A stretch of 64,000 nucleotides of DNA from Patescibacteria group bacterium (GTDB lineage Bacteria; Patescibacteriota; Patescibacteriia; Magasanikbacterales; GWA2-37-8): contig JBAZUP010000001.1 of the NCBI GenBank assembly GCA_041661385.1, positions 640,907 through 704,906 of the forward strand, given 5' to 3'. The notes under the pieces are model-generated. The model made no database searches, was not told where the DNA came from, and saw nothing but the letters and a program-made list of their open reading frames with translations. Shown here piece by piece: positions 1 through 54,354 of this stretch (the stretch's first letter is position 1; each line of letters opens with the position of its first letter). The position numbers and the translations under genes are program-made.

Positions 1-102
1 GCCCTAAATAATTTTGATGGAGCAATTATTTTAGTCAGCCATGCCTACGATTTTATTGAAGAAATAAAAATTGATCAAACCTTAGACTTGGGAGCGCTAT
101 AA
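1..102 (+). CDS. ABC-type ATPase, C-terminal fragment (5' end outside window)
   Basis: ORF runs in from window edge to TAA at 100-102; ALNNFDGAIILVSHAYDFIEE resembles the C-terminal region of ABC-F-type ATPases. Confidence 0.3.
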   Translation, partial: ALNNFDGAIILVSHAYDFIEEIKIDQTLDLGAL

Positions 103-134
103 TTTCTAGCGAGCCAACAAACGAAAATTTATTT

Positions 135-434
135 TCACTTGTGGCGAGCGACGTAATTATATACCCGGTGCGAAGCAGCGGGTATATAAAAATTTTTTAT
201 CAAAATTAACTTTTCCGTCCGGGAAAGTTTTTTTATTTTTATTTCTCTTTTCAGAGCAGCGGAAAGAGTTTTGTATTTTTCAAAATATACTAAATTTACC
301 GGCCTACGGCCGCGGGTATACTTTGCACCGGCTTTACCACCATTGTGGTCACTCAATCGTTTTTCAATGTTGTTCGTGTAGCCGGTATAAAGCGAACCAT
401 CAGAACACCTAAGAATGTATACAGTATACTGCAC
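135..434 (-). CDS. GIY-YIG nuclease family protein
   Basis: 99 aa; YILRCSDGSLYTGYTNNIEKRLSDHN is a canonical GIY-YIG motif. Confidence 0.8.
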   Translation of the reverse strand: MQYTVYILRCSDGSLYTGYTNNIEKRLSDHNGGKAGAKYTRGRRPVNLVYFEKYKTLSAALKREIKIKKLSRTEKLILIKNFYIPAASHRVYNYVARHK

Positions 435-1087
435 ATTTTTAAATTAAAAATACTCACTTTTGCCCTTATTTTACACGATTTTCTCGTTTGCAGCAATTTA
501 AATTAGTTGCGCACCACTTATCCACCGACTGTGCACTTTTTATCAATATAATCCTTGCCAATTATCTCATTGGGTATTTAATAACGAGATAGTGTGTGAT
601 TTTAATCCACGATTCAACTTCAGCAAAACAAACAAACTGATTGTGGCAGTTTCTGCCGAAAAATCAACAAGCTACTAAGCGAACCCCTAAGTTAATCTTT
701 ACAATTAACTTAGGAGCTCATCTTTCCGACTTAACCGAATATTTATCGCTAAGGTTAATAAAGGAAAATATGAAGCAATGGGCAAATAAAACAAGGAATG
801 TTATCAGATGTTTATATTTGAGAATGTTTCGAACACGCATTAATCCGTCAATGCGGGTATTATTTGTTAATTTTTTTGGATTAATATTTTTAAAAAGACA
901 AATTTAGTTTGTCTTTTTTTATTATTATTCAAAAAAATTTAATTATTAACTCGGTTAAACAAAGAGGGTGTCACTTCCACCAAACCAAAAGGTCGAATGG
1001 TATGAGGTGATTATTAAAAAAATTTAACCGGCAACCTAGCTGATTTTTATAATAAATAGGAAAAACCAGCGGGATAATAAATATCAT

Positions 1088-1966
1088 ATGAATAAAAAAA
1101 TATTTTTAAGCTTCGCGATGATTGCAGCGGTCGCAGCGATTGGCATTGGCGCTACTACTGCTTTTTTCGCGGATACTGAAACATCAACTGGCAACACTTT
1201 CACAGCCGGTGCGATTGATTTAACTGTTGATAGCACGGCGCACTACGACGGGCTTATTTGCGTGGCAAATATTGATGCGCCCGGCTACCATTGGGCACTC
1301 GAAAATGCGCAAGTACCTTCAACTCGGCCTGATTTGATTGATAAGGCCTGCGGTGGCAGTTGGCTACTTACCAATCTTGGCCCGACCAATCAATTCTTCA
1401 ACATCAGCGACCTCAAACCGGGCGACCAGGGTGAAAATACTATCTCGCTTCACGTCGATAACAACGATGCGTATGCGTGTGCAGATGTAAGAATCACCTC
1501 CAACGCAGAAAACAGTGTTCTTCAACCGGAAATTGCTGTCGGCGACAGCACTACCACTGTTGGAAACTTTGACGGCGAACTAGCACAGAATGTTAATTTC
1601 TTTGCCTGGGCCGATAATGGCGTTACTAGTACTGACGGCCAAATTGGAAAAGGTGACAATGTTTGGCAAGTTGGTGAACCGGCTCTCTTCACAAACGGTG
1701 TTGGCCCTGCGAGTGATGTGCTTGGCGGCAAAAGCTATATGTTAGCTGGCCCCGGTAATGCACTTCCTAGCGGAAGCACCAGTTATATCGGTCTAGCCTG
1801 GTGTGCGGGCAGCATGACTGCCGTTAACGGTGTCATAACTTGTAACGGAGCTGCGATGGGAAATATTACTCAAACTGACTCCATGACTGCAGATGTTACC
1901 TTTCGAGTCGAGCAGGCCAGAAACAACCCAAACTTCACCTGCGTTCTTCCACAACTTGTTGAATAA
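1088..1966 (+). CDS. camelysin/TasA-family (peptidase M73-like) secreted protein with SipW-cognate signal peptide
   Basis: N-terminus MNKKIFLSFAMIAAVAAIGIGATTAFFADTETSTGNTFTAGAIDL matches the SipW-cognate signal class plus TasA/camelysin N-terminal core (NLKPGD-like motif present); lies upstream of sipW. Confidence 0.8.
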   Translation: MNKKIFLSFAMIAAVAAIGIGATTAFFADTETSTGNTFTAGAIDLTVDSTAHYDGLICVANIDAPGYHWALENAQVPSTRPDLIDKACGGSWLLTNLGPTNQFFNISDLKPGDQGENTISLHVDNNDAYACADVRITSNAENSVLQPEIAVGDSTTTVGNFDGELAQNVNFFAWADNGVTSTDGQIGKGDNVWQVGEPALFTNGVGPASDVLGGKSYMLAGPGNALPSGSTSYIGLAWCAGSMTAVNGVITCNGAAMGNITQTDSMTADVTFRVEQARNNPNFTCVLPQLVE

Positions 1967-1987
1967 TTTATCCTAAGCTTAATTTAG

Positions 1988-2013
1988 CCTACCCTGATTT
2001 AACTCAGGGTAGG
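1988..2013 (+). terminator. intergenic stem-loop between tandem camelysin-like genes (partial terminator/attenuator candidate)
   Basis: cctaccctga-tttaac-tcagggtagg perfect 10-bp stem; no strong U-tract. Confidence 0.3.
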
Positions 2014-2027
2014 TATACAAGGCGAAT

Positions 2028-3434
2028 ATGAAAAAAATAATAATAAGCCTTGGGATAATCCTGAGTATCGTGGCTGTAATCGGAATAACCGGAACAAGGG
2101 CCTTTCTTTCTGACTCAGAAAAGTCAGTTGGCAACACTTTCACAGCCGGAGCCATTGATCTGAAAGTTGATAATGAAAGCTATTACAACGGCGCTATTTC
2201 GCAAGCGACCACTTTTGGTCCGAGCGACCTAATCGACGGAAAATTGCTTATCAACTTTAGAGATTTGAAACCGGACGACGAAGGTGAAGACACCATTTCT
2301 TTGCATGTGAATAATAATGACGCTTGGCTCTGTATGGATATGTCACTCACCACCAATGACGACATTTCCTCTAATGAGCCAGAGCTCGGAACCGGCGACG
2401 CCCCAGAAGATATCAATAATACCTGGGACGGAGAGCTGGCCGACAATGTGCGAATGATCTGGTGGGCCGATGATGGCGATAATGTGCTTGAAGTCGGAGA
2501 ACCGCTGTTAAATGGCGGGGTCAAAACGGTCAAGGATTTCTTTGGCCCGAACCTGACTTCCTCAATAGATCTCGTTGATGCCACGACCAATGTCTGGAAT
2601 CCAAACCAGTTGGGACCAGCGGTAGGCGGCCAAGATTATTACATCGGCAAAGCCTGGTGTTTTGGCACAATGGCTGAAGCTCGCGTCGCACAAGACGGAC
2701 AAGGCAAATTGCCTGATAGTACCAATGGCCCATTAGTTCGGGGAACCGGCACAACCTGTAATGGCGCCGCTCTCGGCAACCAGACACAGACCGATGGCGT
2801 AACCATGAATATTGCATTCCGAGCAATGCAGGCAAGGCACAACACGGGCTATACCTGTGATACAGAGCAACGCCTGGCAACGATTACTGTCACCAAACAA
2901 ATCATCAATGACAACGGCGGCAACAATGTTGTCGGCGATTACCAGTTGTTTGTCAGTGATGGCGCAAACACCATTCCTCTCACTTCCGGAGTTCCAACTG
3001 TAGTGCCAGTAGGCAACTACATCGTTACGGAGACTGGGGTGCAGGGATATGTCGGTTCCTTCGCGGGACCAGATTGCAACTCAGTAGGCCAAATTACTTT
3101 ACTTGAAGGAGATAGTAAAGCTTGCACGGTCGTAAATAACGACCTGCCGCCGAATATCACTTTGATAAAGAATGTGCTTAGTGGAACAGCCAACCCCTCA
3201 ACCTTTGGGTTGAAGGTCGATGGCGCCTTAGTACAAAATGGCTCATCGGTCGCGGTGACATCCAACGCACCTCATGCGATTACCGAAGACGGCTTACCTG
3301 GTTATACGTTTGTCGGACCAATTACCGGCACCTCTAACTACGGTCAATCCTGCCCGACTACTTTGGGTGGATCCATAACACTAGCCGAAGGCGAAGCGAT
3401 TGTTTGCACTATTAATAACGCTCTAACGCCATAA
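2028..3434 (+). CDS. camelysin/TasA-family secreted protein with two C-terminal beta-sandwich (prealbumin/Cna-B-like) repeats
   Basis: N-terminus GITGTRAFLSDSEKSVGNTFTAGAIDLKVDN parallels preceding gene; C-terminal ~90-aa duplicated module (NYIVTETGVQGY... / GYTFVGPITGTSNYGQSCP...). Confidence 0.8.
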   Translation: MKKIIISLGIILSIVAVIGITGTRAFLSDSEKSVGNTFTAGAIDLKVDNESYYNGAISQATTFGPSDLIDGKLLINFRDLKPDDEGEDTISLHVNNNDAWLCMDMSLTTNDDISSNEPELGTGDAPEDINNTWDGELADNVRMIWWADDGDNVLEVGEPLLNGGVKTVKDFFGPNLTSSIDLVDATTNVWNPNQLGPAVGGQDYYIGKAWCFGTMAEARVAQDGQGKLPDSTNGPLVRGTGTTCNGAALGNQTQTDGVTMNIAFRAMQARHNTGYTCDTEQRLATITVTKQIINDNGGNNVVGDYQLFVSDGANTIPLTSGVPTVVPVGNYIVTETGVQGYVGSFAGPDCNSVGQITLLEGDSKACTVVNNDLPPNITLIKNVLSGTANPSTFGLKVDGALVQNGSSVAVTSNAPHAITEDGLPGYTFVGPITGTSNYGQSCPTTLGGSITLAEGEAIVCTINNALTP

Positions 3435-3549
3435 TAATCTCAAAAAATCCTAAAGGCTAAAAAAGAATACGAATTCTTTGAGGCTGCCCCATCGGACCAA
3501 GGCCGAAAGGGACAGCCGATTGAGGATTTGAAAAACTAACTATAATTAA

Positions 3550-4086
3550 ATGAAAATATTCAATATCATCTATTATTTGTTCTTTGGCTGTATCTGCACG
3601 ATTGCAACTCTTTTACTCGTTTCAATTTTTCCGATTACTGGAAATATCAAAATTATGTCCGTACTTTCCGGTTCAATGGAACCGGCAATCAAGACCGGCA
3701 GTATTGTAATTGTTAAACCGGCCGCAGATTATAAAGTCGGCGACATTATCACCTTCGGTAAGATCAGCAGAACGCAAACCCCAATCACACACCGCATCAA
3801 CGAAATCAAAGGCCTGGGCGCAACACGGATATTTATTACCAAAGGCGACGCTAACAATGCGCCTGATAGCAAAGAAGTAAGGCTGGGTGAAATTGTCGGC
3901 AAAGAAATACTAACCGTTCCATATGTTGGTTACGCTATCAACACCGCCAAAAAACCTTGGGGCTTCGCGCTAATAATTATGATCCCCGCTTTGCTTATAG
4001 TCTTTGATGAAGGGAAAAAAATATGGGATGAAATAATAAAAATAAAAAATAATAAAAAAAATGAAATCCAAAATCAAGAAAATTAA
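3550..4086 (+). CDS. sipW: signal peptidase I, SipW/archaeal-ER type (S26B)
   Basis: 178 aa; N-terminal TM, SGSMEP catalytic-Ser box, ITHRI and GDANN boxes; closely parallels Bacillus SipW. Confidence 0.85.
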   Translation: MKIFNIIYYLFFGCICTIATLLLVSIFPITGNIKIMSVLSGSMEPAIKTGSIVIVKPAADYKVGDIITFGKISRTQTPITHRINEIKGLGATRIFITKGDANNAPDSKEVRLGEIVGKEILTVPYVGYAINTAKKPWGFALIIMIPALLIVFDEGKKIWDEIIKIKNNKKNEIQNQEN

Positions 4087-6547
4087 AAAAGCTTTAAACA
4101 AAGCCCGCGCAAAAAAACACTCGGTATTTTTAGTGAAACCTGTTGCGTTTGGTTTTTCCCACCGACCACTGATGCGCGTGTGTGCCACAATTTTACTTTT
4201 CACCATGTGCGCGCTGCAATTGCGCGGCGTAAGTGGCACCCGTGCTTTTCTTTCCAATTTAGAAACATCCACCGACAATACTTTTACTGCCGGCACTTTG
4301 GATTTCAGCCTATCTTCGCAAGTCTCAACCACTTCCACCTGCGCCGCTTTTGGTAAACCTATCAAAAAAACTATTAGCATCACCAATCTTGGCAACTCAT
4401 TCCGATATCAGGCGAAAGCCGGCGAATTAGCCGGCGCGGTTTGCGATTATGTCTGGCTAGAAGCCAGTCTCAGCTCCGAATTAAAATATTCTGGACTCGC
4501 CAAAGATTTTGATTATGGCCTGACTGAATTCACTGACCCAAATGCCTGGGGTTTTTCACTATATTTTTCATCTACCACGCCAGCGAACCTGCAAGGACAA
4601 ACTTGTGAATTTAATTTCGATTTTCTGGGTCAGCAAACTCGGAACAATCTGGTATTTCCAACCGGTTTTTCTGATCGAGAAATTTCTACAACAACCTTGC
4701 AAGCGCCATATTGCGAGGATTTTGAAGTTCGTTCCGTGGGATATTGGAGAACCCATTCATCCATTTATCTTCCACTTTTGCCAGTGTTTCTTGGCGCTAC
4801 TACCACCCTACCAAACGGACAACCGACCAGCACCAACGAAATGATCAATACCCAAACCAAGGTAAATAATATCTTCAATGCCTCCAACAGCATAATGCTC
4901 AACAAACTAAAAAAACAATTGCTTGCAATGAAATTTAATATATTTAATTTCCATATTGATGCCTATGTGCCGCCAGAAAGTTCTGATGATATGGATACGA
5001 TTGTGGCACAGGCCGACGCGCTGCTCCGTCGTATCCCAGCAGCTCCCGATACCGAACTGGAGGTAATGAAAAATCTTTTGGAAAGTATTAATATCGCGAT
5101 TTCATTACGGATTTGCACGTGTGAACCACCCCCGCCACCAAACAGTTGCGCGCTGCGCATTACCAAAACATCTAACAAAACAGAAGTTGCGCCGGGCGAT
5201 ATTATAACCTATCATTTAACGCTAGATAACTATGGCACCAAAGTTTGTACTGGTGGCGGCGTACGTATTGATGATAACTACCCCTCTACGCTTGAATATA
5301 TCGGCTATACCGTTAACCGCACTCTCAGCTACGATAATATATCAACAGGAGTTATTGAGTGGAATTTTGGCAATGTCTATCCCAACGATCCGCTGATTGA
5401 AATAGATCTTAAATTGAAAGTTGCTAACAATGCTGATTATACCAAGGCGGCTTGTGGTTCGATTATAACCAACTCGGCCAAATACTGGTCCAACCAAACC
5501 GATTGGGGCACGCCGGTAACCGCTGAAAGCAAGGTTGTCTGCTCGGCGCCGGGAACACCAACGGTCGTCCTCAATGAATTTTTACCAAACCCCATCGGTG
5601 CGGATAACGCGAATAAACCCGGCGGCGAATGGATAGAACTTTACAACCTAAGCACCAGTTCTGTTGATGTGAACGGCTGGGCGCTTTACGACGAATCCGA
5701 TTTACATAAACTCCTCATCACGCCGGCAATTACTAACACCGGATTAACCGTGATTCCTGGAGGCGGGTTCTTGGTAGTTTATCGCAACGGTAGTTCAAGT
5801 TTTGCTCTGGATAATGTTGGCGGGGATTCAGTCCGACTATTTGATGGTCAAATTTCGAATGGCGCAAATTTAATTGATTCATTTGTTTACTCGGAAGACG
5901 CGCCCGCAGGCAAATCTTTCGCCCGCATTCCTGATGGTTCCAGCAATTGGGTTGATCCAACCCCGACTCCTGGTGAAGAAAACTCTTTACTCGACGCCTT
6001 TGCTTTCTTCGGCCCGGCTGTACCAGAAGAAGGTGAAGACGATTATATTGCACTCATACCAGAACAAATTACTACCGATTCGTTAGCAACAAAAACAAGC
6101 AGTGTCATCATTGAACCAACAACTACTTTAGAAATAGTAACTAGTAGTGAGATCATTGCACCGGTGACCACCTCAACTGAGCCAGTAACAGAAATTTTAA
6201 TAAATAATTCCCCGGACCAAGGTGCGACATCTTCGCCGATGACTACTTCGTCCACGGTAAGTTTACCAACCGCAGAGCCGACTGTGCCGCTTGATGAAAT
6301 AGCAACTCCGCCAATCCAAGAACCGGTAGTTGCGCCTATTATTGAAACAACAATCATACCGGAACCAACTGAACAATCGACAGCTCCAACTACCGAAACA
6401 ATCGAGCCGGTTACTACCCCGGAAACACCGGTGATTCCAGAAAATACAAGCGACACAATTCAAGTCGAAAGCCCGATTGCTACAATGCCACCAGAAGCAA
6501 TAATACCAACGGCACCAACGGTAACCGATAACGGCTCCGGTGCATAA
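4061..6547 (+). CDS. large secreted/cell-surface protein: SipW-cognate signal, camelysin-like core, DUF11-like domain, lamin-tail-like domain, Pro/Thr/Glu-rich tail
   Basis: GVSGTRAFLSNLETSTDNTFTAGTLDF signal; PGDIITYHLTLDNYGTKV... resembles DUF11; LNEFLPNP...GEWIELYNLS...VNGWALYD resembles lamin-tail domain; start may be the in-frame ATG at 4172 rather than 4061 (overlaps sipW). Confidence 0.7.
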   Translation: MKSKIKKIKKALNKARAKKHSVFLVKPVAFGFSHRPLMRVCATILLFTMCALQLRGVSGTRAFLSNLETSTDNTFTAGTLDFSLSSQVSTTSTCAAFGKPIKKTISITNLGNSFRYQAKAGELAGAVCDYVWLEASLSSELKYSGLAKDFDYGLTEFTDPNAWGFSLYFSSTTPANLQGQTCEFNFDFLGQQTRNNLVFPTGFSDREISTTTLQAPYCEDFEVRSVGYWRTHSSIYLPLLPVFLGATTTLPNGQPTSTNEMINTQTKVNNIFNASNSIMLNKLKKQLLAMKFNIFNFHIDAYVPPESSDDMDTIVAQADALLRRIPAAPDTELEVMKNLLESINIAISLRICTCEPPPPPNSCALRITKTSNKTEVAPGDIITYHLTLDNYGTKVCTGGGVRIDDNYPSTLEYIGYTVNRTLSYDNISTGVIEWNFGNVYPNDPLIEIDLKLKVANNADYTKAACGSIITNSAKYWSNQTDWGTPVTAESKVVCSAPGTPTVVLNEFLPNPIGADNANKPGGEWIELYNLSTSSVDVNGWALYDESDLHKLLITPAITNTGLTVIPGGGFLVVYRNGSSSFALDNVGGDSVRLFDGQISNGANLIDSFVYSEDAPAGKSFARIPDGSSNWVDPTPTPGEENSLLDAFAFFGPAVPEEGEDDYIALIPEQITTDSLATKTSSVIIEPTTTLEIVTSSEIIAPVTTSTEPVTEILINNSPDQGATSSPMTTSSTVSLPTAEPTVPLDEIATPPIQEPVVAPIIETTIIPEPTEQSTAPTTETIEPVTTPETPVIPENTSDTIQVESPIATMPPEAIIPTAPTVTDNGSGA

Positions 6548-6558
6548 AAAATAATAAA

Positions 6559-7695
6559 ATGAAAACATCCGAACTAAAATTCCAACTCCTAAAATTATCC
6601 GCGCTTGTTGTCGCGTGGTTATTTGTATTCAATCCATTACCCGCAAAAGCTGGCAACATCGCTGATATATATTTTGAACAGTCACCGCTGTTTGGGTCAA
6701 CAGATATTGTACCAGGTGATACCGTTGCGAAGTGGGTAAGGGTAATAAATAAAGTGAATGATAATCTAATCGTGACGACTGCGGCTTCTAGTGTAATTAA
6801 TGATGATCATTTAGGTGATCGGCTAAATTTAATAATTAAAAAAAATGGCGTTCTAATTTATTCCGGAACAATGTCAGAATTTTTCACAGCCTCTGAAACG
6901 ATACTCGGCACCATAGCTCCTTACCAAACCGGTCAATATTATTTTACCGTGTCATTCGATAATGCTGCGGGAAATAATTTTCAAGAAAAAACCTTATCTT
7001 TTGATATTGCCGTTTCCGCCCAAGTTTCAGAATCAATTGGCGGCGAAACCCAGGCACCTCAAGGTGGTAGCTCCGGCAACAGTGAATATATTATCAGCGA
7101 TTTAAATTTAACAAATATCAGCGCAAACCTTGTATCAAATCTTTCCACTTCTTCTATCACTATTACTTGGCTTACCAATAAGGCGGCTACATCACGGGTT
7201 GTATATGATACTGTGCCGCACCCCGATCTATCTATGGCTCTGCCACCAAATTACGGATATGCTTCTTCCACCATGCTTGATACAAATAAAGTTACGAGCC
7301 ATTCCGTCACAATTTCCGGATTACTCCTCGGGCAAGCATATTATCTAAGGCCGATTTCTGCAGCATCGCCGGAAAAATTTGGAGCCGAGTTGGCAGTCAT
7401 ACCAAGTGGCGCGGAGCAAATAAATAATACCCAAACTTATAAAAATAACAGCGCAACATATGTTCCAGCTGAATCGCCGGAGAATGAAATCAAAAATATA
7501 AAAATTGCACAAACTGTCCCGATTGCTTCGCCAAGGAGTGAAATCAAAGGCATAAAAATTTCCCGTACTTCCGGCGCCAATAACTTAACCGAATCTGGAA
7601 TCGGCCCTCTGGAGATTGTCTTTTCGGGAGTAAGCATCCTGATTTTGTTTTCTCTCAGAATATTATTAAAGAAAAATAGCGTAGTTACAGATTGA
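6559..7695 (+). CDS. secreted protein with camelysin-like N-domain, FN3-like domain and C-terminal TM anchor
   Basis: 378 aa; signal peptide; IVPGDTVAKWVRVINKVNDNL resembles TasA core; ITITWLTNKAATSRVVYDT FN3-like; hydrophobic C-terminus. Confidence 0.55.
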   Translation: MKTSELKFQLLKLSALVVAWLFVFNPLPAKAGNIADIYFEQSPLFGSTDIVPGDTVAKWVRVINKVNDNLIVTTAASSVINDDHLGDRLNLIIKKNGVLIYSGTMSEFFTASETILGTIAPYQTGQYYFTVSFDNAAGNNFQEKTLSFDIAVSAQVSESIGGETQAPQGGSSGNSEYIISDLNLTNISANLVSNLSTSSITITWLTNKAATSRVVYDTVPHPDLSMALPPNYGYASSTMLDTNKVTSHSVTISGLLLGQAYYLRPISAASPEKFGAELAVIPSGAEQINNTQTYKNNSATYVPAESPENEIKNIKIAQTVPIASPRSEIKGIKISRTSGANNLTESGIGPLEIVFSGVSILILFSLRILLKKNSVVTD

Positions 7696-7719
7696 GATTT
7701 TTTCTGTTTAAAAATAATA

Positions 7720-7748
7720 GGCCCTAGGTGCAATTCGCACCTAGGGCC
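7720..7748. terminator. GC-rich perfect hairpin between convergent genes (bidirectional terminator candidate)
   Basis: ggccctaggtg-caattcg-cacctagggcc, 11-bp perfect arms. Confidence 0.5.
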
Positions 7749-7766
7749 GGTCTCCCGATTTGGGAG

Positions 7767-8975
7767 TTACTTCTTCTCCCCCGTTGTGGTGAGCCTCGCG
7801 TCTTCGGCCACCTTTACGCGGTCGAATACATAAACGCACTTCTCACCTTCGGCAGCGCCGCAGGGGTTGTCTTTCCTCTCCTTCACTTTCACCCAGTGAC
7901 CAGTGTCCTTGAGGACGCTGATCTTGGGCACATCGAGCCGGATCTTTTCTTCCACCTTCGGTTCAGGCTTCACTTCAACCTTCACCTCGGGCTTCTTGCT
8001 TGCAAGCTCGATGTCTGCAACCTTCAACGCGGAATTCACGTCGTACACGCAGTCAACAGCGACCACGCCAACGACACCGAGTGAAGAGTTGTTTGAAAGG
8101 CCGAGCCCTACACCAAGCGCCTTGTCGGCGGCATAGTTTGCAGCTCCGCTCGAGCTACCCCCTTGGCCATCTTGGCCGACCGTGAGGTAGACCTGATGAC
8201 CGTAGACGGTGACAATCTTGCGATTGAACGGAGCCGGGATGAGAACCTCATCCACCAGGAACGGCTTTTCATTGTCGAAACCATCGAGCATGCCGTGCAT
8301 CGTCTGCACGCGAACACCCGTCTGCCACAGACCAAAGATCTGTGGAACATGAGCATTGCGCTCGAATGGGCGAACCATGACCCTACGGCCGCAGTCGCCC
8401 ATCTTCTCGAGACGAACACCGCCCATGGCGATGGTGGTCGGAAGCGACGGCGGCTGCACCGGGAAGAAAGTGAGCTCCCGGCTGTTGTCGACATTGGTCG
8501 TGGTCTGATTGACCACCGCACCTCCGCCATTGCCGGAGTTTTCCACCTTCGCCTTGCCGCCCTCAGCGTTTCCGCCAGTTGCATTTCCGCCGGCAGCATT
8601 GCCACCCGCGCCACCAGCACCTCCTTGCGAGGTGGAAGAAGACGAGGCGTCGCCTGTCCTCACATCTCCGGTATGAACCGAAGTGTTCTGGTCACCAGTG
8701 GTGGAGGTCGAGGTAGAACCCGACTGTGCGTTGCCGCCAGTTGCCGTCGAAGCAGAGTTCGACGCCGAGTTGGCATTCGCGGTGACCTGTTGATTCTGGT
8801 CTTGAGACTGATGTTGGTTCTGATCCTGCTTCTGGTTCTGAGTCTGGGTCTGATTCAGGTTGCACGGCTTTCCCTTGGGGTGGCCGTGCTTTTCATCATC
8901 GCAGGCGAAAGCCGACGAAACGAAAAGGAATTGAACGAAAACCGCGAACACTGCCGCAAGCATCTTTTTTGACAT
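7767..8975 (-). CDS. GC-rich secreted protein of unknown function, Gln/Asn/Gly/Ser-rich low-complexity N-half (compositional island A)
   Basis: ATG at 8975 preceded by GGAGG (8983-8987 complement); MSKKMLAAVFAVFVQFLFVSSAFA signal peptide; strong GC3 codon bias unlike flanks; ORF-track start 9047 is an upstream in-frame alternative. Confidence 0.55.
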   Translation of the reverse strand: MSKKMLAAVFAVFVQFLFVSSAFACDDEKHGHPKGKPCNLNQTQTQNQKQDQNQHQSQDQNQQVTANANSASNSASTATGGNAQSGSTSTSTTGDQNTSVHTGDVRTGDASSSSTSQGGAGGAGGNAAGGNATGGNAEGGKAKVENSGNGGGAVVNQTTTNVDNSRELTFFPVQPPSLPTTIAMGGVRLEKMGDCGRRVMVRPFERNAHVPQIFGLWQTGVRVQTMHGMLDGFDNEKPFLVDEVLIPAPFNRKIVTVYGHQVYLTVGQDGQGGSSSGAANYAADKALGVGLGLSNNSSLGVVGVVAVDCVYDVNSALKVADIELASKKPEVKVEVKPEPKVEEKIRLDVPKISVLKDTGHWVKVKERKDNPCGAAEGEKCVYVFDRVKVAEDARLTTTGEKK

Positions 8976-9255
8976 CGAACTGCCTCCGTGGGTGAAAATC
9001 GATTGACCATCAACTTTCTTCATTGCGCAATTGTTGCTTTTGCACAACTGAAGATTCTATCATTTTTTTACCATATTGTCAATGATATATCGATATATTT
9101 AACTGAGCTCCAATCGTATTATCAACCGTAGAATTACCCCAAATCACTTAAAAACCGCCCTTACTTGGTTTATGCACCCTGTTCTACCCTTGATTTTTCA
9201 AAATATTTATGCTATTCTAGTCAAACAAAAATTGATGTTTTTACGCTAATAAAGC

Positions 9256-9341
9256 GGAGAGGTGGCCGAGCGGTTTAAGGCAACAGTCTTGAAAACTGTC
9301 GTGCCTAATAAGCACCGTGAGTTCGAATCTCACCCTCTCCG
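9256..9341 (+). tRNA. tRNA-Ser (anticodon TGA)
   Basis: GGAGAGG...CCTCTCC acceptor, long variable arm, anticodon loop CTTGAAA, T-arm GAGTTCGAATCTC. Confidence 0.9.
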
Positions 9342-9358
9342 CTTTGTTAGTAATAAAC

Positions 9359-9484
9359 GGAGATGAGATTCGAATGGGAAAGGGAGAAAACGGGAGTTTT
9401 TTCTTGATGAGGAAAGCCCACGAAAACCCGAACGGTTTTCGTGAGAGCGAAGCGAGTTCGAATCTCCGATCGCCGCTTTGTTAG
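9359..9484 (+). repeat. tRNA-3'-associated structured element, copy 1
   Basis: begins ggagatgagattcgaa (inverted copy of the tRNA-Ser T-arm and 3' strand). It contains hairpin agaaaacgggagtttttct, core TGATGAGGAAAG, and hairpin GAAAACCCGAACGGTTTTC (9422-9440). It ends gagttcgaatctccgatcgccgctttgttag, a direct copy of the tRNA 3' end and trailer. Confidence 0.6.
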
Positions 9485-9497
9485 TTAAAAATGTAAT

Positions 9498-9584
9498 GGA
9501 GAGGTGGCCGAGCGGTTGAAGGCGTTGGTCTCGAACACCAATAAAGTCGAAAGACTTTCGTGAGTTCGAATCTCACCCTCTCCG
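9498..9584 (+). tRNA. tRNA-Ser (anticodon CGA)
   Basis: same acceptor/T-arm as upstream tRNA-Ser; anticodon loop CTCGAAC; long variable arm aaagtc-gaa-agacttt. Confidence 0.9.
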
Positions 9585-9626
9585 CTAAATTAAATACCAT
9601 CCAATAGGGGTGGTATTTAATTTATT

Positions 9627-9763
9627 GTGAATGATGAGATTCGAACTAAAGATGGAAAGAAACGAAGTTTCTTTCGTGCTGAGGAAAGTTCACGAAAACC
9701 CGAACGGTTTTCGTGAAGCGAATGAAATGAACGTGTTCGAATAGCGAAGTGCTCACCCTCTCC
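9627..9763 (+). repeat. tRNA-3'-associated structured element, copy 2
   Basis: gatgagattcgaac (inverted T-arm) ... gaaagaaacgaagtttctttc hairpin ... TGCTGAGGAAAG ... GAAAACCCGAACGGTTTTC (9694-9712) ... gtgttcgaata...ctcaccctctcc (direct 3' acceptor copy). Confidence 0.6.
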
Positions 9764-9770
9764 ACCAAAA

Positions 9771-9806
9771 CAACGACTCTCTTGTGTGGGTCGTTGTTTT
9801 TGTTTT
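9771..9806 (+). terminator. rho-independent terminator
   Basis: caacgac-tctcttgtgtggg-tcgttg followed by tttttgtttt. Confidence 0.6.
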
Positions 9807-9846
9807 ATAATAACTATATAAATTAAATAAAAATTTTTAGAAATAT

Positions 9847-9954
9847 ATGCGCGTAATATTTATTGTCGGCTTTATAGTGTTGATCATTGCAGTAACCGGT
9901 TTTTATGAATACTTTTCCCCCGACAAACCAAAGTCAAAAGACATTCCTAAATAA
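9847..9954 (+). CDS. possible small membrane peptide (35 aa)
   Basis: ATG...TAA, MRVIFIVGFIVLIIAVTGFYEYFSPDKPKSKDIPK; hydrophobic; below ORF-track cutoff; unverified. Confidence 0.2.
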   Translation: MRVIFIVGFIVLIIAVTGFYEYFSPDKPKSKDIPK

Positions 9955-10003
9955 TATTTAGAAATAAAAAAACACCTCATATGTTTATAAGGTGTTTTTT
10001 TTA

Positions 10004-10636
10004 TTAAACGATATGAAAAAATTTTTCTTTTGGCAGTCGAACTTTTGCGAGTTTTAGATAATCATCACTTTCATCTCTAAAACCCACTGCCGCAATTACT
10101 ACCGTTTTCAAACCCTTCTCCTCGAGCCCTAAGATCTTATCAAACTCCGCCGGATTGAATCCCTCCATCGGCGAAGCGTCTATTCTTCCTTCTGCCGCCG
10201 CTGTCAAAAGCACACCCAGCGCAAGATAAGCTTGCCTGGCCGCCCACTCCTGTCGCTGTTCGTTAGTTCGTGAAGAGATTGTGTTTTTTATCATTGATTC
10301 AAAATCTTTTAAAGCCGCGACTGGCACGCCACGGGTCTTAGAAATCTCCTCCATATATTCATCAACATGTTTTTCGCCCAGATCTTTTTCAATTGCAAAT
10401 ACTAACAGGTGAGAAGCGTCTGTAATCTGAGGCTGTCCAAAAGCGGCGATTTTCAATTTTTCACGTATTTCCGGTTTAGTAATTACTAAAACCTTAAACG
10501 ATTGCAAGCCAAAAGATGACGGTGAAAGGCGAATTGCTTCCATAAGACCTTCAAGCTGTTCCGATGACAATTTTTTCTCTGTATTATATTTTTTTGTAGC
10601 ATAACGCCACAATAACGAGTTAATCGCTGTTTTCAT
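10004..10636 (-). CDS. nitroreductase family protein
   Basis: 210 aa; nitroreductase-fold signature residues (RYATKKY..., SPSSFGLQSFKVLVI, C-terminal GF..ESDDY). Confidence 0.8.
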   Translation of the reverse strand: MKTAINSLLWRYATKKYNTEKKLSSEQLEGLMEAIRLSPSSFGLQSFKVLVITKPEIREKLKIAAFGQPQITDASHLLVFAIEKDLGEKHVDEYMEEISKTRGVPVAALKDFESMIKNTISSRTNEQRQEWAARQAYLALGVLLTAAAEGRIDASPMEGFNPAEFDKILGLEEKGLKTVVIAAVGFRDESDDYLKLAKVRLPKEKFFHIV

Positions 10637-10761
10637 ATATTTTACTACATTATGTCACGTCAAATCCTTAAAGACGCGGCAATTAATTTAATTAATGGAG
10701 GATTTTACATTGTATCCCCTATAGTCTATACTGTCAAAATAAGGGGGTTGGTCAATTATTT

Positions 10762-11181
10762 ATGTTCAAAAAAAGTGGATTAATTTTAGTCGGAATTTTG
10801 ATAATTGTAGCAATGATTTTTTGGGTTAAATTTTTTAGCGCCGAAGATTCTTCTCCCACCGCTCCACTCGATCAAAAACCGCTAGTTTTGCCGCCCCTAA
10901 ACGCCCCCAAACAACTTTCCATCTCCGGTCTTTATGTTTGTTTACCGAGTAAAAATACTAGTCCTCAAACCATGGAGTGCGCTCTCGGACTTATGGCAGA
11001 TGATAATAATTATTATGCGCTCGATACTCAAAAATTAAGTTCATTTATAATTTACCCTACTGGTACTCGCCTTCATATTTCTGGCTTGTTCACACCAATT
11101 GAAATGATCAGCGCCGATACCTGGCGAAAATATAATATTAAAGGAATAATTAGCGTCGAAAAAGTAAATGAAATTGAATAA
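10762..11181 (+). CDS. hypothetical exported/membrane protein
   Basis: 139 aa; N-terminal TM helix; no recognisable domain. Confidence 0.4.
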   Translation: MFKKSGLILVGILIIVAMIFWVKFFSAEDSSPTAPLDQKPLVLPPLNAPKQLSISGLYVCLPSKNTSPQTMECALGLMADDNNYYALDTQKLSSFIIYPTGTRLHISGLFTPIEMISADTWRKYNIKGIISVEKVNEIE

Positions 11182-11206
11182 AATAAATTAAAAGATATTT
11201 ATTAAT

Positions 11207-12271
11207 ATGACAAAAAAAATAAATGTCGCGATTTTATTTGGCGGCAAGTCAGCCGAACATGAAGTGTCGCTTCGTTCGGCAAAAAATGTTATCGAGGCGC
11301 TCGATAAAAGTAAATTTAATCCGATTCTGATTGGTATTGATATAACCGGACACTGGCTTTTAAATGAAAATTCTCGTGAGCTTCTCGAGCACAACATCCC
11401 CCAGGAAATAGCTTTGTTGCCGGAACACCAGGGAGAAATGATAAATTTTTCAGATCTTAATAAAAAACAAAAAATTGATGTTGTTTTTCCAATTTTGCAC
11501 GGACCGTTTGGCGAAGACGGTACCGTCCAGGGGCTCTTAAAATTGGCGGATGTGCCGTTTGTTGGCGCTGGAGTGCTTGGTTCCGCGATCGGCATGGATA
11601 AGGATGTTATGAAAAGATTACTTCGTGATGCCGGACTCCCGGTTGGCAAATTTATAACTTTTAAAGATTTTGAAGTTCCAACCTATAAAAAACTTACCGA
11701 CGAACTCGGTTCGCCATTCTTTATTAAACCGGCCAATCTTGGTTCTTCAGTTGGCGTTCATAAAATAAAAAACAAAATCGGATATGAAAAAGCGCTTGCC
11801 GATGCTTTTCAATACGATCGCAAAATTATTGCCGAAGAATTTATTGAAGGCAGAGAAATTGAGTGTGCGGTTCTTGGCAACGAAGAACCGATTGCCTCAA
11901 CGCCTGGCGAGATTATCGTCAACAGCGAATTTTATTCTTATGAAGCGAAATATCTAGACGACAAGGGCGCAACTCTGCAAATTCCAGCGAAACTTTCCAA
12001 CGAACTCAGCGCGGAAATTCAATATCTTGCCGTTCAAACTTTTAAGACTCTTTGCTGTGAAGGTTTGGGTCGGGTAGATTTTTTTCTGAAAAAAAACGGG
12101 AAGGTGCTCATTAACGAAATCAACACCATCCCGGGTTTTACTTCTATTTCAATGTATCCCAAACTCTGGGAAGAAAGCGGTTTAAAATATTCTGAATTAA
12201 TTACCCGTCTTCTTGAACTAGCTATTGAACGCTACCAGAAAGAATCTAAACTTAAAACTGCCCGCTCTTAA
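11207..12271 (+). CDS. ddl: D-alanine--D-alanine ligase
   Basis: KINVAILFGGKSAEHEVSLRSAKNV N-terminus, ATP-grasp motifs, C-terminal EINTIPGFT. Confidence 0.9.
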   Translation: MTKKINVAILFGGKSAEHEVSLRSAKNVIEALDKSKFNPILIGIDITGHWLLNENSRELLEHNIPQEIALLPEHQGEMINFSDLNKKQKIDVVFPILHGPFGEDGTVQGLLKLADVPFVGAGVLGSAIGMDKDVMKRLLRDAGLPVGKFITFKDFEVPTYKKLTDELGSPFFIKPANLGSSVGVHKIKNKIGYEKALADAFQYDRKIIAEEFIEGREIECAVLGNEEPIASTPGEIIVNSEFYSYEAKYLDDKGATLQIPAKLSNELSAEIQYLAVQTFKTLCCEGLGRVDFFLKKNGKVLINEINTIPGFTSISMYPKLWEESGLKYSELITRLLELAIERYQKESKLKTARS

Positions 12272-15928: not shown

Positions 15929-16110
15929 ATTTATTTGAATTTCCGAGTGATTGAGTTTATATCGAAGATATAAGATATTTTCCCTTATTATACACTAAAT
16001 TAACACAAAATCAACCTATATAAATGATAAGGGCGGCCCAGTTTATGGGCTCGCCCTGTGTGAGGTTTTGCCTGCCCTCAGCAGGCCGCACGGATGCGGA
16101 AATTGGGTAT

Positions 16111-16464
16111 CTACCCGACCACCCCGACAGCTTCGGGGTAAAGAGTCTCGGGGTCGGGCCAGAGGGCCTCATTCACGTCGGCAAGCAAATCACCGAACGA
16201 AATTTCCCTCTCGGGATAGATGCGGTCCGGCTCGAGCCGCACGTAGCCAAGCCGATTGGCCAAAATGACCACATAACGGTGCTTGCCGCTCTTGTTGTAG
16301 ACCGCGAAGGTGAGTCCATCCTTGGTCCCGAAGGTCCCGCCAACCCCGAACTTCCCGGGGATCTTGGCCTTCACTGCCGCAGCGAGTCCGTCCGTTCCGA
16401 AGAACGAAAGCCAGCAAAAGTTTTCGCCAGCCTCAGCAACAGCCACTCTGATGTTAGTCTTCAC
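16111..16464 (-). CDS. GC-rich hypothetical protein (island B)
   Basis: 117 aa; extreme GC3 bias versus flanks; GC-rich hairpins 16031-16056 and 16070-16086 just downstream. Confidence 0.45.
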   Translation of the reverse strand: MKTNIRVAVAEAGENFCWLSFFGTDGLAAAVKAKIPGKFGVGGTFGTKDGLTFAVYNKSGKHRYVVILANRLGYVRLEPDRIYPEREISFGDLLADVNEALWPDPETLYPEAVGVVG

Positions 16465-16864
16465 GTTTTGACTCCTTGTTACTGGGTTTACCCGCCTAGA
16501 AAAGAACGATTTTTAATATTCCAGACCTTTTTATGTGTCTGGAGTGTGGTTTGTTTTGCAAAACACACCTCAAAACATAAAAATGCATAAAAAATCACCC
16601 TTTTTTGAAGGGTGATTATAGTTTTATCGATAAGCGCTACTTCTTAGGCATTTTCAAAAACATAATCACCCCTCTTATAAAAGAAGGCCCAGAAGCTAAA
16701 ATACTGTTGTGATTGATTATGTTTCATAGATTGAATTAAATTTACCCTAAACTTTAGGGGGCGTCAAGTGTGGATAAAATGCCGATAAACTTCAAACTAA
16801 TTTGGAGCTTAATAGGTTGGCAGAGATTAAGCCCTCTGCCATGGCTCCGTCGAAACGGAATGAG

Positions 16865-17185
16865 CTACTTCATAGGGCTCTTGCTGAAGAACCCCTCGCA
16901 GGTTAGGCTGAACAAATAGGCAGCCTCGCTGACCTTGAGATTCGTTCCAGCCTTGAACGAAAGAAGGTTGCCGCCGGAAAACCGGCCCCTCATTCGCGCC
17001 TCGCGCAATTTCTCGATCGTCCCCTCGTCATCGGGCTTCAGTGCACCCGACGCGCACAGCTGCCCCAGCTTGTTGAGCGCTGTCGCTTCATCAGGATCGA
17101 GCACCTGATGAAACACCCCGTAGAAAGATTCGTTCCTGAGCATCGAATCGATCATGAACTTCTGAATCACCGCCGCGTCAATCAT
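16865..17185 (-). CDS. GC-rich hypothetical protein (island B)
   Basis: 106 aa; same compositional class; hairpin ggcagag-attaagccc-tctgcc 16819-16840 downstream. Confidence 0.45.
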   Translation of the reverse strand: MIDAAVIQKFMIDSMLRNESFYGVFHQVLDPDEATALNKLGQLCASGALKPDDEGTIEKLREARMRGRFSGGNLLSFKAGTNLKVSEAAYLFSLTCEGFFSKSPMK

Positions 17186-17224
17186 CGAACTTCTCCTTGT
17201 GAGAGTAAATACAGTTGCTGTGAA

Positions 17225-17590
17225 CTACTTCTTGCTCGCTCGGGAGCTGATCCGCTCGAGGCCGGGCCACACGTTCTTCATGAAGAGTTCCGGCTTGAAG
17301 AACTTGACCGGACGCAGCACGATGGTACGCGCCGCCTCCCTCTCGACCTCCGAGGAGTTTCTGGGGCTATACCAATAACCCCGCTGGATCGCCTTGTGAA
17401 CCATGTCGAGGTCCTCGTCGCTCACGATGATCCGTGACCGATTGGACATGTCGACGAATTCGTCGAGAGACTTCACGACGTTCTCGTCAATCTTCGGCTT
17501 GAAGATGATGAGAAGCCGCTTGGTCACCCGAAGGGAATTCTGCAGCTCAGTGAGAGCCATGTCTTCTGTCTGGAACTGTCCATTTCCCAT
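17225..17590 (-). CDS. GC-rich hypothetical protein (island B)
   Basis: 121 aa; 40-bp gap to next island gene; no recognisable domain. Confidence 0.45.
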   Translation of the reverse strand: MGNGQFQTEDMALTELQNSLRVTKRLLIIFKPKIDENVVKSLDEFVDMSNRSRIIVSDEDLDMVHKAIQRGYWYSPRNSSEVEREAARTIVLRPVKFFKPELFMKNVWPGLERISSRASKK

Positions 17591-17675
17591 TTATTTTACC
17601 CCTTTTTGATGTCTGCCGAGATATTCAGCGGACTAAGAATTCTATCAAAAAAATGGGTTTTTGTCAATGGAAGCC

Positions 17676-17797
17676 GAGGGGAATCGCACTGCTCGGCCTT
17701 CGGCCTGCGCTTTGAGAAACCGTTCGGGTTTCTCAATACTCATCCTCAGCAAGTAAGAGGGCTCGCTGCCCTCTTACCATCTCCCCGTGCGATTCCC
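17676..17797 (-). repeat. tRNA-3'-associated structured element, copy 3 (downstream of tRNA-Cys)
   Basis: read on minus strand: gggaatcgcac (inverted tRNA-Cys T-arm) ... gtaagagggcagcgagccctcttac hairpin ... TGCTGAGGATGAG ... GAGAAACCCGAACGGTTTCTC (17714-17734) ... gagcagtgcgattcccctc (direct copy of the tRNA-Cys 3' end). Confidence 0.6.
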
Positions 17798-17838: not shown

Positions 17839-17843
17839 ATTTG

Positions 17844-17915
17844 AGGCCCGAGTGGGAATCGCACCCACGCATAGGGGTTTTGCAGACCCCTGCCTTACTG
17901 CTTGGCTATCGGGCC
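17844..17915 (-). tRNA. tRNA-Cys (anticodon GCA)
   Basis: GGCCCGA...TCGGGCC acceptor with discriminator U, anticodon loop CTGCAAA, T-arm GTGGGTGCGATTCCCAC. Confidence 0.9.
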
Positions 17916-27102: not shown

Positions 27103-27118
27103 AATTTGTTAATAACAC

Positions 27119-27378
27119 TGTTGATAAAGATGTTGATAAACTCTTAATAAGGCCAAATAATAATCCACAGTAGAAATTTTTTAAGACTTACTTATCCACA
27201 CTAAAAATATTTAATCTAACTTATCAACACTTAGACGATAAACTACTAACAAAAAATATTTTTTTTACCCACACGGTTTTCCGCTCTGATTAAAGTAAAT
27301 TTCGACTTATCCCACCTTTCCACACCCCTTATTATTATTAATTCAATATATATATAAATAATTAGTATACTATTAATA
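27119..27378 (+). promoter_or_regulatory. oriC candidate: DnaA-box cluster plus AT-rich unwinding element between dnaA and dnaN
   Basis: TGTTGATAA x2 (27119, 27131), TTATCCACA (27192), TTATCAACA (27221), TTATCCCAC (27307); aattcaatatatatataaataatt AT-rich DUE 27331-27378. Confidence 0.7.
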
Positions 27379-27388
27379 GACGTGTTGT

Positions 27389-54053: not shown

Positions 54054-54127
<74 letters not shown>

Positions 54128-54354
54128 CAAATGAACAGAGATTTTAATCTCTGTTTTATTTTGTTTTTAATATTGACAAAAGCGTAATTTTGTGATATTA
54201 TGTTATGTTGCTTTTTACTCTATTTTTAGCAAAAAAAGCGATAAATGCTCATTAAAATGCAGTTTCAGCTGTGCAAATAGCCCATGTTTCGTGGTTTGTT
54301 TGCACGGGTGAACTGCAGTCAACTAGTTCGCGCTATAGGGGCGCAGGAGGAAAC

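Follow-up and report, generated by a model that had tools for sequence, protein, structure and literature searches.

A GC-rich expression cassette for a predicted exported protein in a Candidatus Magasanikbacteria genome, probably acquired by horizontal transfer

How did a protein-coding gene of 57.2% guanine plus cytosine (GC) come to lie in DNA that averages 41.5%? The gene (positions 7767-8975, minus strand; island A) stands beside two tRNA-Ser genes in a 64-kb stretch of DNA from a Patescibacteria group bacterium, the whole of which is called the window here. The host is a low-GC, uncultured groundwater bacterium of Candidatus Magasanikbacteria (Patescibacteria, or Candidate Phyla Radiation, CPR): among the GTDB species representatives its DnaA is 56-77% identical to that of 80 metagenome-assembled genomes (MAGs), of which about 30 carry the label Candidatus Magasanikbacteria and several others that of Patescibacteria or Parcubacteria. 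Positions 7696-9085 of the window are a self-contained, monocistronic expression cassette with an extended promoter, a structured leader, a GGAGG ribosome-binding site, an open reading frame (ORF) of 402 codons and a two-hairpin terminator. The cassette as a whole was probably acquired horizontally from an uncultured bacterium of higher GC content, and its product is probably an exported protein.

The composition of the gene sets it apart from everything around it. A previous reading of this DNA from its letters alone (the sequence-only reading) had estimated by eye 55-60% GC for the island and 35-40% for its flanks. The first estimate holds (56.6% for region 7700-9010). The flanks are AT-richer as described, but the range is slightly low for the coding ones: the convergent neighbouring gene (6559-7695) is 40.3% GC, and the intergenic region upstream of the cassette gene (8976-9255) is 34.6%. 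The GC content changes sharply at both ends of the gene. Among all 1209-bp windows of the 64 kb, the island is the GC maximum (0.58; mean 0.415, standard deviation [sd] 0.041; z = 3.9), and 7701-8900 is the top outlier in tetranucleotide profile (L1 distance z = 5.7; correlation with the profile of the window -0.07). Uniform composition on calculation, which the sequence-only reading had named as grounds for abandoning a horizontal origin, is thus not what is found.

Codon choice accounts for most of the anomaly. The GC content at the three codon positions (GC1, GC2 and GC3) is 0.61, 0.44 and 0.67, and the GC3 of 0.667 compares with a mean of 0.384 (sd 0.093) in 44 other ORFs, as expected from the claim that third positions are dominated by G/C in a way unlike the neighbouring genes. 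When the protein is re-encoded with host codon frequencies, the gene falls to 47.3% GC with a GC3 of 0.38. The excess of 16 GC points therefore divides into about 6 due to amino acid composition and about 10 due to codon choice. AAG makes up 89% of its codon choices in the island gene and 18% in the host, TTC 92% and 19%, ATC 86% and 19%, and CTC 50% and 10%; TTA, at 26% in the host, is absent from the gene. Host ribosomal protein S6 reaches only 33% AAG and 38% TTC, which indicates that expression-linked codon bias in the host is far weaker than the bias of the island; the figures for host trigger factor are 15% and 19%. The codon usage of the cassette gene is thus far outside the host range, ribosomal protein S6 included. 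By GC content, GC3, codons and tetranucleotides alike, the gene has the composition of a horizontally acquired gene.

The family comparison takes in ten loci besides the window and shows how far the unit extends. The closest relative, P0002, has 56% amino acid identity and is encoded on a 2.4-kb contig (L001) where the island is sharper than in the window (gene 67% GC, GC3 0.93; flanks 42% GC, neighbouring genes GC3 0.48). The neighbouring genes of L001 differ from those of the window, and the closest homologues are non-syntenic. Homology nevertheless extends to the -35/-10 region, the promoter-proximal hairpin, the context of the ribosome-binding site (CCACGGAGGCA) and both 3' hairpins. The leaders align with 68% identity over 106 nucleotides (nt), and the first hairpin shows one compensatory pair change, T-A to C-G. 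The terminator hairpin is identical at 27 of 29 positions, and its A-T to G-C and G-C to G-U changes preserve the stem. The first 3' hairpin also shows a compensatory change (CUCUC-GAAA-GAGAG in L001, CUCCC/GGGAG in the window). Four-fold sites at identical residues are 44% identical, near saturation, compared with 79% for the 3' untranslated region and 68% for the promoter and leader.

Because L001 shares these regulatory parts in a different neighbourhood, the conserved, relocated unit runs from promoter to terminator (approximately 7696-9085). The promoter region had been described as host-like. It is AT-rich, as stated, but more than plain host DNA: homology with the sequence upstream of the L001 copy starts at the -35 box, and the region is therefore part of the cassette. 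Since the transferred unit includes this AT-rich promoter and leader, the boundary of the island would be misplaced by a GC profile alone. A promoter of the form TTGACA-17/18-TAnnAT is found at the matching relative place in the L001, L002, L006, L007, L090, L093 and L094 copies.

The other loci suggest where the family is at home. On contigs of 51-60% GC, the GC3 values of family gene and neighbouring genes are about equal (L002 0.565 and 0.554; L006 0.54 and 0.58; L089 0.72 and 0.70; L090 0.57 and 0.64). The family gene is raised above its neighbours in the window (0.67 and 0.38), L001 (0.93 and 0.48), L007 (0.62 and 0.50), L093 (0.83 and 0.70) and L094 (0.85 and 0.70); the low-GC contigs in this group are the window, L001 and L007. 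In a neighbour-joining tree of the core domain, low-GC hosts and hosts of 54-60% GC interleave, and P0004 (host approximately 44% GC) groups with P0005 and P0007 (hosts 54-55%). Orthologues with the same GC skew in all related low-GC genomes would, according to the sequence-only reading, have spoken for an ancestral gene. GC-rich relatives do occur on two other low-GC contigs, but they are non-syntenic and their low-GC hosts are not monophyletic, which argues for repeated transfer rather than ancestry.

The family is tiny, uncharacterised, rare and apparently patchy. An exhaustive HMMER search of 1.84 billion cluster representatives gives 25 clusters at E<1e-10, all metagenomic, and the sole taxon name seen on any family member is "Patescibacteria group bacterium". 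A two-motif scan of the 185,579 GTDB species representatives, the collection that holds the DnaA relatives of the host and whose MAGs are incomplete, returns zero relatives; the window's own sequence satisfies both motifs. No match was found among phages (tblastn, four family members), among plasmids (tblastn, window protein), in PHROGs (cassette protein and family) or in IMG/VR, which was scanned for both the family and the terminator hairpin. The horizontal origin proposed in the sequence-only reading is supported by the codons, the empty GTDB scan and the recurrence of the unit in another neighbourhood in L001.

The proposed model for the origin of the cassette is as follows. The family would be at home in moderate-to-high-GC genomes and would have entered low-GC genomes more than once. 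The donor of the window copy would have had a GC content of roughly 55-60%, and the copy, with its GC3 of 0.67, would not yet have ameliorated to the codon usage of its host. Amelioration reasoning (Lawrence and Ochman) is well established; the direction and recency of the transfer in this model are presumptive. Insertion is assumed by default to have involved DNA uptake and illegitimate recombination in a permissive intergenic region adjacent to tRNA genes. In 125 genomes of aquifer Patescibacteria, hundreds of islands and transferred genes have been described, and 83% of the transfers are between Patescibacteria (PMC12455944).

Several points weigh against this model. No donor genome was identified, and no integrase, transposase, att-type direct repeat or tRNA fragment was found at the ends of the cassette. 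The GC3 of the family is higher than that of neighbouring genes in five of nine scorable contexts, including L093 and L094 (neighbour-gene GC 57-59%), and is never more than 0.07 below it, so some gene-intrinsic pressure toward G/C-ending codons is possible. Near-consensus promoters are present at all family loci examined but L098, which fits strong expression and codon selection. L094 has a tRNA-Ser and a nitroreductase gene (39% identity) nearby, and this could be a trace of old synteny. As for the product, its function is read entirely from predicted features: AlphaFold2 (AF2) confidence is good for the core only, and no match in the PDB is significant.

Much of this would suit a native gene, the alternative that survives best, although it is unlikely. 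The gene would then be an old resident whose G/C codons persist through a pressure specific to the gene, for example very high expression, mRNA stability or a Gly/Ala/Ser/Thr-rich composition. The consensus extended promoter, strong Shine-Dalgarno sequence, leader hairpin and strong terminator agree with this, as do the same high-expression design at all family loci examined but L098, a GC3 that in most contexts equals or exceeds the value of the neighbours, an amino acid composition that alone raises the expected GC content to 47.3%, and the tRNA-Ser and nitroreductase genes near both the window and L094 copies. However, 10 of the 16 GC points are due to codon choice, and neither ribosomal protein S6 nor trigger factor of the host comes anywhere near its AAG and TTC usage. 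Four-fold codons ending in G (ACG, TCG, CCG and GCG) are common in L001, and with the GC3 of 0.93 they look like a high-GC mutational equilibrium rather than translational selection. Two other GC-rich islets of the window (B and C, described below) carry the same signature in small ORFs that are unrelated and not secreted. The closest homologues are not syntenic, and the motif scan found no relatives among the GTDB species representatives, although Magasanikbacteria MAGs are well represented there.

Horizontal acquisition has a special case, a quite improbable one, in which the unit is itself a mobile mini-cassette that lacks a recombinase, is mobilised in trans by one encoded elsewhere and inserts preferentially beside tRNA genes or terminators. 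In L007, a contig from Hainich groundwater, a perfect 55-nt direct repeat (869-923 = 2166-2220) brackets the cassette; it includes the terminator hairpin of the upstream gene and reaches the end of the contig. A tRNA gene lies less than 300 nt away at three or four of the eleven loci (two tRNA-Ser genes in the window, tRNA-Ser[GCT] in L094/L095, L006 and probably L088). The entire unit is kept across unrelated contexts. Each of the three islets of the window has a tRNA gene 140-280 nt away, and two carry their own TTGACA consensus promoter. Against this, no flanking direct or inverted repeats were found at the window, L001, L002, L093 or L094, nor around islands A, B and C. No tRNA-derived att repeat is present at any islet end, and the tRNA-Ser genes have no k-mer of 8 nt or longer in common with 7640-7800. 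Nothing is conserved at the cassette ends beyond promoter and terminator. The L007 repeat is exactly 55 nt long and could be an insertion footprint, a tandem duplication or an assembly limit at k = 55. The association with tRNA genes is marginal and post hoc (binomial approximately 0.01-0.05 at the tRNA density of the window), and the L098 copy lacks its own promoter. It is just as doubtful that there is a class of minimal self-expressing cassettes that move without a recombinase among uncultured groundwater bacteria, those of the CPR among them, and settle next to tRNA genes or terminators, with at least islets A, B and C as members in this chromosome and the L007 repeats as a footprint.

Three of the loci just mentioned have tRNA genes at known distances or positions. 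In L006, the family member (9802-11255) lies between tRNA-Thr(GGT) and tRNA-Thr(CGT). In L094, it lies 237 nt before tRNA-Ser(GCT) (5469-5557). In L088, it stands just before a truncated tRNA-like sequence at the 3' end of the contig. In L098 (1-3212), P0009 is encoded without its own promoter within a closely packed series of seven small, co-directional ORFs (56% GC); the series looks like a fragment of a phage or other mobile element. A 16-nt inverted match between 7804-7819 and the 5' end of tRNA-Ser lies inside the coding sequence (CDS) of the cassette gene and is taken as chance.

Two kinds of known element resemble the cassette in part. Like integron gene cassettes, it has a single ORF, its own ribosome-binding site, a 3' inverted repeat and varied genomic contexts. 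Unlike them, it has a strong promoter of its own (11/12 consensus positions), and its 3' repeat is a perfect GC-rich stem with a T-tract and no extrahelical bases. Assignment to the integron cassettes was rejected: R''/L''/L'/R' boxes are absent, reading of 7696-7770 gives no GTTRRRY core, there is no cassette array, and no recombinase family was matched in the ORFs scanned within about 8 kb. Like tRNA-targeted islands, island A adjoins tRNA genes, as do family members at two or three other loci, and islets B and C are just 3' of tRNA-Cys and tRNA-Ala. Unlike such islands, it lies on the 5' side of a divergent tRNA-Ser and is only 1.4 kb long. A tRNA-integrated island was also rejected, as there is no integrase and no direct repeat of a tRNA 3' end at the far boundary. 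More broadly, ORF and Pfam scans of window positions 1-16 kb found no integrase.

If horizontal acquisition is accepted, who was the donor? Episymbiotic CPR bacteria (Saccharibacteria) live on Actinobacteria. An actinobacterial host of the episymbiont as donor was the speculative suggestion of the sequence-only reading; such a donor, or another cultured high-GC host, is very improbable. Only the high GC content of the gene and this general precedent speak for it. Neither Actinobacteria nor any cultured taxon is named for a family member seen among 5.8 billion clustered or 1.84 billion representative proteins, Patescibacteria is the only taxon name attached to any of the approximately 25 family clusters, and the motif scan of the GTDB species representatives is empty. 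In aquifers, Actinomycetota are the source of 1 of about 130 inferred transfers into Patescibacteria (PMC12455944).

An assembly chimera, in which the assembler would have joined a high-GC fragment to a CPR contig, has a negligible chance: it would suit the sharp GC change at both gene ends and the metagenomic source (MEGAHIT-style contig name), but the DNA recurs at 100% identity in independent Logan assemblies of two other runs, over window positions 1-9301 in SRR18595301 and 2031-9290 in SRR6484324 (9.3 kb and 7.3 kb), and both of these span the two junctions. The protein is also found in two NCBI MAGs, the junctions fall exactly at the promoter and at the terminator (with 24 nt between the terminator and the neighbouring gene's stop codon), and the same mosaic occurs in L001 and L007, from other samples.

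The features of the cassette are listed in Table 1. The single minus-strand gene, its start, its 402-residue product, its GGAGG, the perfect GC-rich hairpin that ends it (7720-7748) and the adjoining tRNA-Ser pair are all as the sequence-only reading had described them.

Table 1. Coordinates of the cassette, the encoded protein segments and the adjoining tRNA genes
Feature	Position	Strand	Remarks
Sigma-70-type promoter, TTGACA-17 nt-TAGAAT with TG extension	9054-9082	-	11/12 consensus match; upstream end of conserved cassette
5' leader, approximately 72-78 nt	8976-9053	-	Promoter-proximal hairpin, then second hairpin (fold prediction)
Shine-Dalgarno sequence GGAGG	8983-8987	-	7 nt 5' of ATG; context common to L001
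CDS, 402 amino acids plus stop, start ATG 8975	7767-8975	-	Predicted secreted protein, uncharacterised family
Putative signal peptide, residues 1-24 (...SSAFA, then C), signal peptidase I (SPase I) AxA type	8904-8975	-	Sequence reading
Cys25-Cys38 loop, then 132-residue low-complexity stretch	8466-8903	-	Composition and AF2
Family-defining beta-rich core, residues approximately 173-312	8040-8459	-	Alignments and AF2
Lys/Glu/Pro/Val-rich linker, then small C-terminal domain with Cys372 and Cys380	7770-8039	-	Alignment, AF2 and composition
First 3' hairpin, CUCCC-AAAUC-GGGAG	7752-7766	-	Immediately 3' of stop codon
Intrinsic terminator	7710-7748	-	GC-rich 12-13-bp stem 7720-7748 and T-tract 7710-7719
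Tandem tRNA-Ser(TGA) and tRNA-Ser(CGA)	9256-9342 and 9498-9585	+	Divergent from cassette

The promoter is the sole promoter-like site in 7500-9400, and the first tRNA-Ser gene starts 174 nt past its -35 box. The first leader hairpin (UUGUGCAA-9 nt-UUGCGCAA within CUUCA/UGAAG; approximately 9018-9053, minus strand) is followed by a second one, and the z-score of the entire leader is only -1.9. Rfam gives only the two tRNAs and sub-threshold noise in 7600-9700, which indicates that no known riboswitch or leader is present there. Two alternative starts within the leader, ATG 9023 (418 residues) and TTG 9047 (426 residues), lack a Shine-Dalgarno sequence and were rejected; the family alignment and the signal peptide favour ATG 8975. 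Long ORFs in other frames, 8163-8972 (plus strand), 8108-8620 (minus strand) and 7728-8084 (plus strand), are regarded as by-products of the GC-rich sequence.

The terminator hairpin consists of ggccctaggtgc-aattc-gcacctagggcc, followed by TATTATTTTT on the minus strand. Its stem has 13 pairs, of which 9 are GC, and the folded 3' region of the cassette has an energy of -35 kcal/mol (z = -7.4). Positions 7710-7748 thus have the GC-rich stem-loop and U-tract 3' of a stop codon that define a Rho-independent terminator. The convergent gene 6559-7695 has its stop codon only 24 nt away, so that this gene probably uses the terminator too.

The protein is predicted to have an N-terminal signal peptide, a long spacer and a globular C-terminal half. 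The N-terminus, MSKKMLAAVFAVFVQFLFVSSAFA followed by C, has the n-h-c form and AxA site of a signal peptide (on direct reading, MSKK-MLAAVFAVFVQFLFV-SSAFA before the C). The basic n-region, hydrophobic h-region and AxA motif of a Sec/SPase I substrate are recognised here by sequence reading. The AxA-type sites line up across 23 family members, and AF2 places a helix at residues 6-18. A lipoprotein was considered and rejected, as the lipobox is poor (A-F-A-C at -3 to +1) and most relatives lack Cys at +1 (V, N, W, G, T, K, A, Q or D). After the Cys25-Cys38 loop (CDDEKHGHPKGKPC), residues 39-170 are 80% Q/N/G/S/T/A, and AF2 predicts disorder (predicted local distance difference test [pLDDT] score <50, residues 31-169). 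The signal peptide form, the Gln/Asn/Gly/Ser-rich stretch and the four Cys of the C-terminal half (195, 309, 372 and 380) had all been recognised in the sequence-only reading; with residues 25 and 38, the protein has six Cys in all.

The core carries the motifs PVQ..LP.T, CG(P)R, TMHG, GHQ.Y, QGG.SS.A.NYA and GVVG.VA..C, and Cys195 and Cys309 are invariant in the family alignments. AF2 pLDDT is 85-96 across most of residues 181-311, and the mean for a core-only model is 76. The C-terminal tail is common to part of the family only (P0002, P0003, P0004, P0007, P0015 and P0019). Neither the cassette protein nor any family member has a significant match in a Pfam scan (best E-value: 0.08). In NCBIfam, the only match is a low-complexity "serine-rich" entry, far under its cut-off. 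A PDB profile search with the cassette protein gives no significant match (best E-value: 0.095), and neither does Foldseek against the PDB with the full and core models (best E-value: 0.3, template modelling score [TM] <0.3). In BFVD, two unnamed viral models are borderline (E-values: 1e-3 and 3e-3; query-normalised TM 0.55 and 0.45) and serve as a lead only; a literature search on the two accessions found nothing. The long beta-hairpins resemble pore-form MACPF or gasdermin structures, but below significance, and the likeness was not used. No anchoring domain (SLH, LPXTG, CWB, LysM or other) was found in the protein, nor an enzyme motif or a characterised structural relative.

The product would be exported by the Sec pathway and cleaved after AFA24. 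Three disulfides (25-38, 195-309 and 372-380) would probably stabilise it, and in the mature protein a disordered spacer rich in Q/N/S/T/G would be followed by a beta-rich core without a recognisable fold and by a small C-terminal domain. The signal peptide, the paired Cys residues, the long disordered spacer and the high-expression design of the unit suggest that it is most likely an abundant surface or extracellular protein that acts outside the cell. In its putative Sec signal with AxA site, disordered spacer and beta-rich domain, it is like the abundant secreted or surface proteins of monoderm bacteria (S-layer-like, fibre or matrix), and the consensus promoter, leader hairpin and strong terminator are typical of highly expressed genes. 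No characterised surface protein matches it in sequence or, at a significant level, in fold.

The genes within 8 kb of the cassette comprise a TasA/SipW-like secreted-protein cluster, the two tRNA-Ser genes and genes for a nitroreductase, Ddl, DNA polymerase III delta subunit and PolA. The secreted-protein cluster (1088-7695) is co-directional and adjoins island A. Its members are a camelysin/TasA-like protein (Peptidase_M73), a SpaA-like prealbumin-fold protein, a SipW-like signal peptidase, an 828-residue protein with DUF11 and lamin-tail domains, and a 378-residue protein with a C-terminal membrane anchor (6559-7695). The cluster resembles a TasA/SipW-type fibre or surface system, and its GC content is mildly raised at 2191-3399 (0.505). 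The two tRNA-Ser genes, each with about 150 nt 3' of it, form a diverged tandem duplication (9256-9700; spacing 242-272 nt; identity 71-83%). An imperfect 45-nt inverted repeat lies at 9558-9602 and 9608-9652, and a trough of about 25% GC (9800-10000) separates the tRNA-Ser pair from the nitroreductase gene. tRNA-Ser(CGA) reads UCG, the commonest Ser codon of the island gene (40%, compared with 14% in the host), which may be coincidence.

Two further GC-rich islets occur in the window. Islet B (16025-17700) has three small minus-strand ORFs (16111-16464, 16865-17185 and 17225-17590) with no Pfam match. Its GC content is 0.55-0.62 in patches between AT-rich spacers, with GC3 up to 0.80 and AAG at 88-100%. 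It lies just 3' of tRNA-Cys (17843-17915, minus strand), and the promoter of its last ORF (TTGACA-17-TGATAGAAT, 17667-17639) is closely like that of island A. The islet B proteins are annotated as hypothetical in the same two NCBI Patescibacteria MAGs as the cassette protein. Islet C is a single ORF (54355-54930, plus strand) for a PEGA-domain membrane protein (GC 0.54, GC3 0.62, AAG 71%). The distance from the 3' end of tRNA-Ala(GGC) (54054-54128, plus strand) is about 45 nt to its own promoter (TTGACA-17-TGATATTAT, 54173-54201) and about 230 nt to the ORF. Both islets share the codon signature of island A (AAG 71-100%), and all three are 140-280 nt from a tRNA gene. Repeated uptake of higher-GC DNA by the genome would be expected to leave islets such as B and C.

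Elsewhere, the window carries dnaA, dnaN, tig, rpsF, a type IV pilus operon and genes for ribonucleotide reductase and a membrane pyrophosphatase; the presence of dnaA, dnaN, the ribonucleotide reductase gene, tig and the type IV pilus genes indicates that the replicon is a chromosome. The window falls within a 105.6-kb ENA metagenome contig. In the two NCBI Patescibacteria MAGs in which the cassette protein is annotated (longest contig recorded 779 kb), it appears as the 418-residue version from the upstream ATG inside the leader. Many third-party annotation (TPA) MAGs whose DnaA is 56-77% identical to that of the host (L008-L087) are titled "uncultured Gammaproteobacteria bacterium"; these titles look like placeholder mislabels, because the records interleave with ones named Magasanikbacteria. 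A giant protein of 2294 residues with LVIVD repeats (39999-46883) and one of 1088 residues with acidic double-disulfide repeats (48311-51577) are both probably surface proteins. Besides the trough next to the tRNA-Ser pair, the window has a second AT-rich extreme at 27101-28300, where dnaN has a GC3 of 0.21 and the tetranucleotide profile is an outlier toward AT (z = 3.5).

The probable horizontal acquisition of the cassette accords with what is known of single-gene islets and ORFans. As in horizontally acquired islets of that kind (PMC12455944), anomalies of GC content, GC3, codons and tetranucleotides are limited to one gene, the distribution appears patchy, the neighbourhoods differ, the product is a predicted surface or secreted protein, and the recipient is a CPR bacterium of groundwater-type samples. 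Unlike the usual case, the cassette is GC-richer than its host, foreign DNA being more often AT-rich, and it comes without mobility genes. In addition, the ORF moves together with its AT-rich promoter, its leader and its terminator, all of them more conserved than synonymous sites. An islet of this kind that encodes an ORFan secreted protein in a CPR genome is of modest interest. Current views are unchanged, since aquifer Patescibacteria are known to carry islands of horizontally transferred genes commonly (PMC12455944), and horizontal transfer is an ordinary kind of event in these bacteria.

The locus also defines a small, uncharacterised family of predicted secreted proteins, with a confidently predicted beta-rich core and no detectable relatives. 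If the proposed origin is correct, the cassette would be a clean case in which a CPR bacterium took over the gene of an exported protein, ready for expression, from an organism of higher GC content. Exported or surface proteins are the class likeliest to influence the interactions of such tiny and probably host-dependent cells with their environment.

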